From Eledone cirrhosa (lineage: Eukaryota), in contig OZ024745.1 of assembly GCA_964016885.1 (NCBI GenBank), positions 27,714,001 to 27,778,000 on the forward strand: 64,000 bases of DNA, given 5' to 3'. A program made the position numbers and the translations under genes. Of this stretch, positions 42,763 through 54,599 are shown piece after piece. Positions within the stretch are counted from its first letter, which is position 1, and each line of letters starts with the position of its first letter. The notes under the pieces were generated by a model, which had not been told where the DNA came from, made no database searches, and worked only from the letters and a program-made list of their open reading frames with translations.

Positions 42763-42841
<79 letters not shown>

Positions 42842-42842
42842 A
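42763..42842. repeat. (TCTA)n microsatellite upstream of the LINE tandem
   Basis: Direct reading. Confidence 0.95.
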
Positions 42843-43073
42843 ATCTAGCTGTCGTCTGTTCTACAGTATGGATGTAATTCACTTCGCGCAGAAGTTTTGT
42901 TCAAATTTATTGCGGAAATTTTGTGAGTTCAAATTTAATTTTGATACTATTCTGTAGCTTGACCCCCGTCTGAACTGTCAGGCGGTGGGTCAGCTCATCT
43001 TTACTCCTCCTAGAGGTGAAAAACCTGTTTTAAAAAATTTTGTGGCAAAAAAAAATTCAATCGTCTGACAGAA

Positions 43074-50868: not shown

Positions 50869-53800
50869 ATGGCCAATATAAGAGTTGGATGTGTGAACGT
50901 ACGCGGCCTGGGGATGCCCTGGAAACAGGGCAAACTCTTAAACGACCTCAGGTCGCACAGTATGGATGTGGTAGCCATTTGCGAGTCCAGGATCCACGGC
51001 GAGCGACAGCTGGCCCCCATCTTCGATGACTTTGAGATCTACGCATCTCTCTGTCAACCGGGGGGTGGGGGCGGAGTTGCCGTTTTGCTGCGGAAACACC
51101 TGGGCCTCGTAACACAGACAGTACATCTGGACCCGGAGGGTCTACTGGTGGTCCTAGACGTTGACGGTAGTGAAGGTGGAGCCTTCAGGCTGGTGGCCGC
51201 ATATGCCCCATCCGGGACACCACGGCCAGACTTCTTCAAACGTCTAGAGACTTTTCTGGGAACGTTCCGCTCCTTGCTTTTAGTGGGGGGCTGGAATGGA
51301 ATCCTAGATGCACGTTGGGACTATGTGGGAGCATGTCCTGATAAAGGGGGGTGTAACAGCCTCAAACAGTTAATCGACCGATTTGACCTGGCCGATAGAT
51401 ATCGACTAGATTTTCCGACTGCGCCACTGTGGACGTGGAGTAATCGTAGCGGAACATCTAGATCGTACCTAGATAGGGTTCTAGTTAGAAATAAGGATAG
51501 GGACATGTTAAGCTGTCCACAAATGTTCATGGTTGCCTATTCAGATCACAAACTAGTGACATGCATGGCCAACCTTGATAGAACCCACAGACAAGGACCC
51601 GGCTACTGGAAGCTGAACTTGTCGTTACCGACAAGCAAAGCCTACAGTAGACGGATTAGCACTTTAGTTAAACAGCACTTGACAGGGGCCATTGTCAACA
51701 ACAGATGGTGGTACTCTCTCAAGAGGGCAGTTAGATTAGACTCGATAGTTTTTAGTAAAGAATTAGCGTTAGATAGAAATAGAACCGAGAAGGAACTGGT
51801 AGATAAAGTAGAAGAGGCAATTAGAAGTGGCAACGTAGCCAGCGTGCTAGCAATGAGAACGGCCTTGGACCAGTTCTTCGACGCAAAGCACGAAGGCTGC
51901 GTTGTCAGAAGCAAAATACGTGCTCTGGGAATCGAGGGAGCCAAAGCTGTTAGCTGGGCCCGAGTGACGGAGGCAAAAAGTGGGAACAAGTCCACGATTC
52001 GGTCTTTGAAGGACCAAAACGGACGCGTGATACGTGAGCCGAAGCAGATGTGTGCGGCTTTTCAGCGGCACTTTGCTCGGCTGTTCGGGGGGAGCGGCGC
52101 GCCGGGAGAGGCTATGGATTTCGGTCCATACCTCGACGGCCTACCGCGACTCTCGGACAGCGAGGCAAAGTTCTGCGAAAAGCCGATTTCAGCCACTGAG
52201 ATAGGGGATGCGCTGAGCCAATGCGGCAAACGCAAATCTCCAGGTCTCGACGGTCTACCCTACGAATTTTACGTAGCAATGCCGGACTTATTCTCCGGTC
52301 TCCTGGAAGCGGTCTACTGCAACTGGCAACAGAACGGGAGAATTCCCAGTTCTGTAACCGGGGGCGTGGTCACACTAATCAGGAAGGACGAGAATAAGGG
52401 GGATGACATAGGTAACTTCCGGCCCATAACTCTGCTAAACACAGAGTTACAGATTTTGGCCAAGGTGTTGGCAAAGAGGCTGGCGCTTGTCGTCGAGAAC
52501 CTGGTGGGAGAAGCGCAGACATGCGCAATCCCGACCAGGTCCATACACGACAACCTCCACCTCATGCGATACATCATAGAGAGGGTAGGGTGTAAACCCG
52601 GCTTCGGTGGGGTCCTGATCAACTTGGATCAGTCTAAGGCTTTCGACAGGGTTGACCATCGTTACCTGGATGCGGTGCTCGAGGCGGCAGGCTTCGGACC
52701 CGTGTTCAGGGGCTGGATTGCTGCAATGCACAACAGCAACATCTGCTCGAGGGTCAAGGTGAACGGCTACCTCTCGGAGCCGTTCCATATTACGCGATCC
52801 ATTCGACAGGGATGCCCTCTCTCCTCCCTTCTGTACGTACTGACTCTCGAGCCACTACTGCGGAAGCTGGAGCTATTGCAGGGCATCCCTCTGGAACCGG
52901 GACTGCGGAAAGCGGCGTCGGCCTACGCCGACGACGTGACAGTAATGGTATCGAGCGCCTCGCAAATCGAGGAAGTCGGCATCTTACTGAAGGAATACGA
53001 AAGTGTCACAGGAGCGAAGCTGAACCGGGACAAGTCCATCGGTTTGCAACTCGGATCGTGGAGAGGCAGACCGATGCCTTCCGATGGCGTCGTCGGACGT
53101 TGGACGGAAGGACCGGTAAAGCTGCTCGGGATCTGGTTTGGTCCAGACCTCCAGGTGGAGAAGAACTGGAACGAAGTGACGGCCAAGGTGTTTGCACTCA
53201 CCCAGAAGTGGGCCGAGTGCAAACTATCCTTGAAAGGTCGAGCGGAGGTGGCCAACACTTTTATAGCGTCCGCCATCTACTACCGCTTGACCGTCGTGCC
53301 TTGTCCAGCCAAAACGCTCGCCAAAATGGAGCGCGCGCTCTTCCGATTCCTTTGGAAGAGGCGGGCTCCTTTGGTGAGAAGATCCATCTGCTGCCAACAC
53401 CCTTCTAACGGAGGGCTGGGGATGCCATGGTTGACGATGCGCAAACACGCGCTCAGGCTGCGGCATCTCAACGTATTTCTCACCGGACAACCGGTGTGGG
53501 CCCCGTTCGTGAGGCGAGCCTTCCCACGACTCGTCTCGCTGACCGAGCTGCAGTCCTGGGTCAAGCAAAGACCGAGGAAAATGGGCGACTGGCACATCGA
53601 ATGTGCTCAGGCGCTCACAGCCCTCTGGCAGGCGGACCTGGCGATCAGTGGAGACTCCACTTCGTCATTCTATAGAGGGTTGGTCCGCAGCAAGTGCGAC
53701 GACGCGCTCGGTGAAACTCTAGGCGTAGAGGAAGATGAACTGGCCAGTCTGTTCGGTAGGACCTTCCGCCCGGGACCGATGGACAACTTCCAAAAGTCCC

Positions 53801-54306
53801 TGGCCTGGCAGTGCTACCGAGGAGCTCTACCAGTTCGAGACAAGCTCTACAGACATGGGCGCCCGGGCAGGGACCCTGCAAAAAAGATCTGTCCGAGGTG
53901 CGTGCGAGACGAAGAAACCGTCGCGCACGCATTCATACACTTCCCGGGCGTCACTGACCTGTGGGGCTATGTAGAACGACTATTGTCGCAGGTGGGACTA
54001 ATCCAGTTGACCACCGAGTTCATTGTCATGATCAAACCGCCACCCTCCTTCAAAAACGAAGGAGAGGCGGTTTTCCTTTGTGTGATAGCTATGGCGAAAG
54101 AGGTTGTATGGTGGACAAGGTTGAAAGGGCTGAGGTCAGACACCTTTCTCTCCGGCCAACAACTGATTCTTTTTTTCAAATACCACTTTGGAAGAAGAAT
54201 CAGGATGGAGAGAGAGGTGCTGTACCCCAGCAAGTTTTATGAAAGGTGGGTGAAAGTGGCGAGAATGGCCCGAGTGAATGGGCCTTCTCTCTATATCAGC
54301 CTGTAG
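50869..54306 (+). CDS. ORF2, APE endonuclease-reverse transcriptase, 1145 aa, open
   Basis: RT motifs intact (YADD, RQGCPLS); endonuclease GDWN reads GGWN; last Cys of the C-terminal CCHC reads Phe. Confidence 0.93.
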   Translation: MANIRVGCVNVRGLGMPWKQGKLLNDLRSHSMDVVAICESRIHGERQLAPIFDDFEIYASLCQPGGGGGVAVLLRKHLGLVTQTVHLDPEGLLVVLDVDGSEGGAFRLVAAYAPSGTPRPDFFKRLETFLGTFRSLLLVGGWNGILDARWDYVGACPDKGGCNSLKQLIDRFDLADRYRLDFPTAPLWTWSNRSGTSRSYLDRVLVRNKDRDMLSCPQMFMVAYSDHKLVTCMANLDRTHRQGPGYWKLNLSLPTSKAYSRRISTLVKQHLTGAIVNNRWWYSLKRAVRLDSIVFSKELALDRNRTEKELVDKVEEAIRSGNVASVLAMRTALDQFFDAKHEGCVVRSKIRALGIEGAKAVSWARVTEAKSGNKSTIRSLKDQNGRVIREPKQMCAAFQRHFARLFGGSGAPGEAMDFGPYLDGLPRLSDSEAKFCEKPISATEIGDALSQCGKRKSPGLDGLPYEFYVAMPDLFSGLLEAVYCNWQQNGRIPSSVTGGVVTLIRKDENKGDDIGNFRPITLLNTELQILAKVLAKRLALVVENLVGEAQTCAIPTRSIHDNLHLMRYIIERVGCKPGFGGVLINLDQSKAFDRVDHRYLDAVLEAAGFGPVFRGWIAAMHNSNICSRVKVNGYLSEPFHITRSIRQGCPLSSLLYVLTLEPLLRKLELLQGIPLEPGLRKAASAYADDVTVMVSSASQIEEVGILLKEYESVTGAKLNRDKSIGLQLGSWRGRPMPSDGVVGRWTEGPVKLLGIWFGPDLQVEKNWNEVTAKVFALTQKWAECKLSLKGRAEVANTFIASAIYYRLTVVPCPAKTLAKMERALFRFLWKRRAPLVRRSICCQHPSNGGLGMPWLTMRKHALRLRHLNVFLTGQPVWAPFVRRAFPRLVSLTELQSWVKQRPRKMGDWHIECAQALTALWQADLAISGDSTSSFYRGLVRSKCDDALGETLGVEEDELASLFGRTFRPGPMDNFQKSLAWQCYRGALPVRDKLYRHGRPGRDPAKKICPRCVRDEETVAHAFIHFPGVTDLWGYVERLLSQVGLIQLTTEFIVMIKPPPSFKNEGEAVFLCVIAMAKEVVWWTRLKGLRSDTFLSGQQLILFFKYHFGRRIRMEREVLYPSKFYERWVKVARMARVNGPSLYISL

Positions 54307-54599
54307 GTTGAGGAAAAGGAGGAGGAGAGGAAAGGAGTACAAACTCTTCGTACTCCTGGAGATGAGGGTTGCACATTTTTTTTCGGGGGTATGTGTTACC
54401 CATATAAACTGTCTCCCTCTATTGGGGAAAATCGACTAACTTTTTAAATTCCATTTGTGATAACATTTTACTCGTTTTTATTGTATGTAAACTTCCCCCT
54501 TTGTATTTGTCCCCTTCTTTTGTGCCCCTGTGGCTAATAAAGAAATATATCTATCTATCCCTCCCTCCCTCTCTCTCTCTCTATATATATATATATTAT

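Follow-up and report, generated by a model that had tools for sequence, protein, structure and literature searches.

Two long interspersed nuclear elements (LINEs) standing one behind the other in a TCTA microsatellite raise the question of whether the repeat is the target into which such elements are inserted, or a sequence which they carry with them. The pair is part of a stretch of 64,000 nucleotides from Eledone cirrhosa (contig OZ024745.1, positions 27,714,001 to 27,778,000 of the forward strand), which is called the window in the following. Both LINEs are 5.8 kb long, lie head-to-tail on the + strand (copy 1, 42879-48659; copy 2, 48735-54545), and possess in open reading frame 2 (ORF2) an apurinic/apyrimidinic endonuclease (APE), a reverse transcriptase (RT), and a CCHC motif. 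According to the reading which we prefer, and to which we assign a probability of roughly 0.6, two full-length, inactive Tx1-like LINEs were inserted successively into a (TCTA)n/(AGAT)n tract that was already present, their lineage preferring this repeat as a target.

Junctions and divergence of the two copies

Each copy begins with the motif TCACTTCGCG (at 42879 and 48735, respectively) and ends in AATAAAGAAA (48650-48659 and 54536-54545); two of the four occurrences of the latter sequence in the window are these element ends. As an initial annotation of the window had stated, poly(A) is absent from both 3' ends, where only AAA stands before the repeat, and the orientation of the junctions is identical throughout, the TCTA strand being the element strand. 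Tandem Repeats Finder reports (TATC)x19.8 upstream of copy 1 (42763-42841) and (ATCT)x16.8 between the copies (48659-48725), both of which had been recognized before. The repeat said to follow copy 2 is present as TATATCTATCTATC; its extent had been overstated, as it comprises about three TCTA units with a mismatch in the first one and is not reported at a score of 40. It is followed by CCTCCCTCCC(TC)6(TA)8.

Over 3.9 kb consisting of ORF2 and the 3' untranslated region (UTR), the two copies are 78% identical; the corresponding value is 73% for the first 166 columns. ORF2 is 78% identical at the level of both amino acids and nucleotides, with a synonymous divergence dS of 0.74, a nonsynonymous divergence dN of 0.13, and a dN/dS ratio of 0.175 (0.13-0.22 by domain); 388 of the 693 mismatches fall on third codon positions. 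ORF1 has diverged more strongly than ORF2, as had been noticed: its globular blocks share 38-59% of their amino acids, and 434 of 754 nucleotides are identical in the part encoding the RNA recognition motif (RRM) region and the CCHC knuckle. Given the ORF2 identity, the dS value, and the dN/dS ratio, the copies represent separate lineages and not a duplication, which confirms the earlier view. The distinct groups to which they belong had been named subfamilies; with an ORF2 identity of only 78%, families is the better term. To judge from the substitution pattern, both diverged as active lineages under purifying selection. A tandem duplication with subsequent decay is rejected on the basis of these divergence data. 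The order in which the copies were inserted cannot be told.

Target, tail, or neither

In order to assess how unusual the flanks are, base rates were determined from the 52,073 bp of the window outside the locus. Repeats of the AGAT class cover 155 bp (0.30%), compared with 6.5% for AT, 1.95% for AC, and 0.97% for AG. The probability of finding a TCTA run of at least 40 bp in the given orientation within 50 bp upstream of a random site is P = 0.0012; this value refers to one window and to a test picked after the data had been seen. Perfect TCTA runs of at least three units occur six times in the window. Four of these have at least 12 units: two adjoin the elements and two are element-free. Both element-free long arrays pass from TCTA to (TC)n and then to (TA)n; the 3' flank of copy 2 has the same order, and the inter-copy array shows it in miniature. 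Taken together, the flanks read (TA)(TG)(TCTA)...(TCTA)(TC)(TA), that is, as one host compound microsatellite, and because this order matches the element-free arrays we interpret them as such a microsatellite split by the insertions. The inter-copy array and the 3' flank of copy 2 are possibly a decayed target-site duplication around copy 2, which low-complexity sequence cannot prove. Both copies (two of two, at one locus) are flanked by TCTA, and the same 3' junction has been kept across lineages separated by a dS of 0.74. A further possibility, that a third copy had left the (TCTA)19 array behind as its tail, was rejected: neither a match to the 3' UTR nor an element end lies upstream of it. 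We favour a target over a pure tail because GATA repeat is rare, because the upstream array lacks an element end, and because the flank of copy 2 is ordered like the element-free arrays.

In themselves, the element-free compound arrays (9838-9977 and 39102-39239) always run in the order (TA)n(GA)n(GATA)n and represent a recurring grammar of host microsatellites.

Several observations weigh against a target preference. There is one locus, and its middle array is common to both copies, so that the junctions are not independent of each other. Only about three TCTA units follow copy 2, the first of which reads TATA. Neither 5' end adjoins TCTA directly: spacers of 37 nt (first counted as 36 nt) and of 9 nt (48726-48734) precede copy 1 and copy 2, respectively. 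The TCTA likeness of the longer spacer is borderline, its score being equalled by 5 of 1000 shuffles, by 136 of 3000 37-mers from non-microsatellite parts of the window, and by 419 of 3000 unfiltered ones. An unambiguous target-site duplication was not found at the locus. In 4 of 4 close rows, 9 residues separate the anchors of the endonuclease hairpin loop. The promiscuous L1 endonuclease (L1-EN) has a loop of this length, whereas that of Tx1L-EN has 11; moreover, neither the sequence nor the loop of the endonuclease gives a positive sign of specificity. Finally, both copies have a predicted 3' hairpin that is followed by the repeats, which fits an encoded tail as well. The GATA-specific endonuclease put forward in the initial annotation is plausible and, by the evidence in the window, preferable to a pure tail, although it rests on these two linked junction sets of a single locus and has no indication of specificity in the endonuclease sequence. 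The alternative posed there, target or tail, is probably not an exclusive one.

The hairpin leads to a different explanation, in which TCTA is a tail carried by the element behind a 3' stem-loop (L2-type), the endonuclease is non-specific, and insertions accumulate in GATA repeats only since the tail can base-pair at nicked or broken sites there. Such tails, consisting of a stem-loop plus repeats, are established for zebrafish L2 (PMC4176376), and the lack of poly(A) and the L1-length loop agree with this idea. The predicted hairpin, which includes AAAGAA, is the same in both copies, stands directly before TCTA, and reaches z-values of -3.5 and -2.9 in 44-nt segments; these segments, however, were picked after the fold had been seen. 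In 150-nt segments, z-values of -1.15 and -0.45 are not significant, and two-sided changes affect none of the 9 pairs in what are two sequences only. Random insertion with a tail leaves the upstream (TCTA)19 and the stacking unexplained, and we regard this explanation as unlikely.

The target could also be a broader or a neighbouring one: compound microsatellites rich in pyrimidines, or the boundary between (TCTA) and (TC), either of which might reflect a Kibi-like TC preference. In both 3' flanks, TCTA indeed gives way to (TC)n, about 14 units behind copy 1 and 3 units behind copy 2, and the targets known from related elements, namely (TC)n, (TTC)n, (TTCC)n, and (TTTC)n, all present the pyrimidine strand in element orientation. 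Yet the repeat phase at both 3' junctions is that of TCTA and not that of TC, the target of Kibi, or TTC, that of Koshi; (TC)n starts further downstream. Pure AG/TC repeat covers three times as much of the window as AGAT-class repeat and contains no copy. We regard a broader target as quite improbable.

Microsatellites are common mis-join points, and the window is very rich in them (173 tandem-repeat rows). The arrangement might reflect no preference at all: a single template-jump event, recombination between TCTA-flanked copies, the passive persistence of copies in DNA rich in repeats, or an assembly error in the middle array. Passive accumulation in CA repeats has been proposed for Drosophila Waldo-A/B (PMC3812793). 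Passive accumulation, however, predicts insertions in (TA)n, which is 20-fold more abundant, and a template jump or mis-join would reduce the count to a single event, with TCTA still standing on both outer sides of the pair. We consider an origin of this kind very improbable.

An insertion into a preferred TCTA tract could proceed as follows. Transcription would start at the shared TCACTT, which we take to be initiator-like. The APE endonuclease would nick the AGAT strand, for which the junction permits A/T or T/A; a nick at T/AGAT is favoured by analogy with L1 (TTTT/AA) and with Tx1L (nick before AGTT, its downstream target), as given in PMC1950540. The motif AATAAA sits 4 nt from the element end. 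The distance between AAUAAA and the cleavage site is usually 10-30 nt; therefore, the RNA would be cleaved and polyadenylated within the UCUA units of the flank. The transcript, with a 3' end of AAUAAAGAAA(UCUA)2-6 and then poly(A), would carry a few read-through UCUA repeats that are complementary to the target and could pair with the primer. This pairing would result in a precise junction without poly(A). As a TCTA repeat would be left on either side of each insertion, the site would remain a target and copies could stack. A more far-reaching version can be offered only tentatively: an octopod Tx1 lineage of several long-separated families may possess an (AGAT)n-specific APE endonuclease and a terminal AAUAAA, which ends the transcripts in UCUA as a target-pairing tail, and may both stack in GATA arrays and help to seed them genome-wide.

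Coding regions, relatives, and features of the locus

ORF2 matches the Pfam families PF03372 (APE endonuclease), PF00078 (RT), and PF13966 (zf-RVT); among solved structures, its closest relatives are those of L1 ORF2p (E 9e-51), with R2 behind. The endonuclease model of copy 1 (predicted local distance difference test value, pLDDT, 94.5) has its best structural match in L1-EN (E 1.3e-19, template modelling score, TM, 0.84), and the catalytic residues are present in the sequence. ORF2 of copy 1 is interrupted by a single stop in frame, at codon 893 (47683-47685); the frame changes of its ORF1 lie near 43105, 43355-43380, and 43770, with G runs at two of the three. In copy 2, ORF1 has lost 14 nt near 49893 and changes frame near 50200. 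A glycine replaces the catalytic aspartate of its endonuclease, which the other 41 rows of a 42-row alignment retain; this aspartate is the equivalent of L1 D145, which the relevant list in PMC1950540 counts among the catalytic and structural residues. In addition, a phenylalanine takes the place of the final cysteine of the CCHC motif in ORF2. Judged by these lesions, both copies are dead as assembled. The initial annotation rightly chose copy 1 as the source of an endonuclease domain, since copy 2 lacks the catalytic aspartate.

ORF1 consists, in this order, of a low-complexity N terminus, a tandem RRM-like region, one CCHC knuckle, a Pro/Thr region, and a small C-terminal block. The model of the central region (pLDDT 92.5) has tandem-RRM proteins as top matches, which are weak (E about 1e-3, TM 0.3). 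The CCHC motif is visible but stays below the Pfam cut-off (E 0.02-0.2); relatives of ORF1 carry PF00098. An L1-type Pfam match was not found in ORF1. An index-free search yielded 48 homologs of ORF1, and a word-index search confirmed none of 282 candidates. The C-terminal block (44566-44865 and 50419-50727) is conserved, with 47-49% amino acid identity between the copies, and matches no Pfam family at cut-off; the ESM Atlas gave only a weak lead labelled GGDEF (0.93; 148 shared features, the guide value being 170).

An ORF2 that combines an APE endonuclease, an RT, and a CCHC motif at its C terminus is a feature of the Tx1 clade and is present here. The clade is also characterized by an ORF1 with an RRM region and a CCHC knuckle, to which the weak RRM matches and the CCHC motif below the cut-off may correspond. 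The designation Tx1-like, already used in the initial annotation, is supported by this architecture and by the automatic names of the best matches, among them a Stylophora 'Transposon TX1 149 kDa protein' with 285 bits (L1 reached 176 bits in a different search). A search returned 112 homologs, the closest of which are an NCBI protein (70%) and, as the nearest named relative, a protein of Argonauta hians (63%). In an RT tree of 44 rows (42 hand-picked homologs plus both copies), the copies, their two closest homologs, and the protein P0138 form one branch (100/99), whose sister consists of 11 proteins (100/98 for the union). A FastTree calculation with 105 of the 112 homologs, seven being omitted for short RT coverage, agrees. 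Note that neither RT tree includes a curated Tx1L, Keno, Kibi, or Koshi reference. Human L1 is alike with respect to the ORF2 layout, the endonuclease fold, and the length of the hairpin loop; it differs in that the elements described here have a CCHC knuckle and no L1-type match in ORF1, and end without the 3' poly(A) tail of mammalian-type L1.

One 64%-identical homolog, P0226, bears the NCBI label of a zinc-binding protein and is assigned there to a metagenome-assembled genome of Herbaspirillum. Its contig of 1775 bp is likely a eukaryotic contamination. In a collection of genome contigs without eukaryotic genomes, a scan aimed at P0226 and a first scan gave 25 and 68 pattern matches, none of which was confirmed as a copy; a plasmid collection contained no match to the elements.

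For Octopus vulgaris, PMC13282606 lists 80 L1-Tx1 families (56.3 Mb), 13 of them recently active with 421 insertions over 2.29 Mb, and the present elements may be among these families; the main text of that paper does not use the word 'target' at all.

The coordinates of the features are compiled in Table 1.

Table 1. Features of the microsatellite-LINE block in window coordinates.
Feature	Position	Strand	Remark
(TA)28 then (TG)16	42674..42762	+	upstream part of host compound microsatellite
(TCTA)19 array 5' of copy 1	42763..42841	+	not the tail of another copy; no element 3' end before the array
37-nt spacer	42842..42878	+	possibly decayed TCTA-type repeat or 5' extension; borderline
Copy 1 5' UTR	42879..43073	+	begins with TCACTTCGCG; two predicted hairpins common to copy 2
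Copy 1 ORF1	43074..44973	+	three frame changes
Copy 1 ORF2, 1145 codons	45007..48444	+	APE, RT, C-terminal CCHC; one in-frame stop
Copy 1 3' UTR	48445..48659	+	terminal hairpin predicted; closes with AATAAAGAAA, poly(A) absent
Inter-copy array (TCTA)13-14 (TC)4 TATC	48660..48725	+	order as in copy 2 3' flank
10-nt palindrome CACACGTGTG	48725..48734	.	immediately 5' of copy 2 start
Copy 2 5' UTR	48735..48943	+	begins with TCACTTCGCG; 73% identity to copy 1, 166 columns
Copy 2 ORF1	48944..50835	+	layout as copy 1 ORF1; two frame changes
Copy 2 ORF2	50869..54306	+	open for 1145 codons; catalytic-residue and CCHC substitutions
Copy 2 3' UTR	54307..54545	+	81% identity to copy 1 in the final 75 nt; closes with AATAAAGAAA
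3' flank TATA(TCTA)2 TC CC(TCCC)2 (TC)6 (TA)8	54546..54595	+	downstream part of host compound microsatellite

The palindrome CACACGTGTG is perfect and may stem from a fold-back of the cDNA at the 5' junction of copy 2. Hairpins predicted in both 5' UTRs (42960-43030 and 48817-48885) comprise 20 pairs with five one-sided changes and one two-sided change; a promoter or an RNA element is possible. No Rfam family matches at gathering score anywhere in the window, these hairpins included. The 37-nt spacer was considered as the head of a small RNA and rejected, as it has neither an Rfam match nor another copy of more than 13 nt in the window.

An abundant SINE-like (short interspersed nuclear element-like) repeat brackets the block with two outward-facing copies at 42570-42671 (- strand) and 54596-54780 (+ strand). 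It has 13 matches in the window, nine of them with the head, and only the two bracketing copies have (TA)n directly upstream; it may resemble octopus tRNA-derived SINEs. A fragment of a third related LINE at 63569-64000 (- strand) is decayed and internally deleted, with 45-68% amino acid identity to the RT and thumb of copy 2; it runs past the window edge and has neither a 3' end nor adjoining TCTA. Elsewhere in the window, about 147 copies of a mixed ACCAAC/ACC repeat (3534-4449) leave several frames open on both strands, and two tandem arrays (14551-15176 and 23295-23749) consist of related units of 152 and 158 bp.

Known microsatellite targets and significance

The concept of microsatellite-targeting LINEs dates from 2004. 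Kibi and Koshi, which belong to the Tx1 clade of teleost fish, are likewise APE-type LINEs found in microsatellites, and the mechanism proposed above would work alike; their targets are (TC)n and (TTC)n, respectively (PMC4494074, PMC3812793). The junction repeat here is TCTA and the host a cephalopod. As proposed, the locus works like Kibi and Koshi, yet belongs to neither by target. Crocodilian Tx1 families have tetranucleotide targets too, (TTCC)n and (TTTC)n, with several families per target class (PMC4494074). Their units are pure pyrimidine, whereas TCTA has a TpA step, and they were scored over many copies, here two. According to that text, target-specific elements can insert in tandem, and a Tx1 family is regarded as target-specific if one sequence type makes up >20% of its flanks. 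Waldo (ACAY)n and Mino (AC)n of the R1 clade are also APE-type LINEs on short tandem repeats, including a tetranucleotide; they differ in clade and repeat from the present elements, the best solved relatives of whose ORF2 are L1 ORF2p. PMC3812793 names ACAY, AC, TC, TTC, and TAA as targets, and PMC4640811 gives (TG)n for Togen.

A GATA-targeting LINE was not found in the literature searched, the scope of which did not extend to Repbase, Dfam, subscription journals, and bioRxiv supplements. In the searched text of PMC4494074, its target figure and supplements excepted, 'GATA' has 0 word-start occurrences. The junction motifs are absent from the literature text search and from the readable parts of the octopus supplements of PMC9115989 and PMC8967140; in the RepeatMasker table of the former, the 29 of 165 'Tx1' occurrences examined are all short, low-score, and uninformative. 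Hence microsatellite-targeting Tx1 elements are known, and what is likely new is the GATA target. For specialists, this would be a welcome additional case and not a surprise.

The choice of microsatellites by these endonucleases is described as not well understood (PMC3812793). With its intact catalytic residues, a loop of L1 length, and a putative target containing TpA, the endonuclease of copy 1 would allow for a clean test of whether specificity stems from the nuclease or from pairing between RNA and primer. If the preference for TCTA tracts is true, octopus GATA markers would be affected, as their flanks might be multi-copy LINE ends. Moreover, GATA/TCTA would join the microsatellites targeted by APE-type LINEs, and microsatellite targeting by Tx1 elements would be extended from vertebrates to cephalopods.

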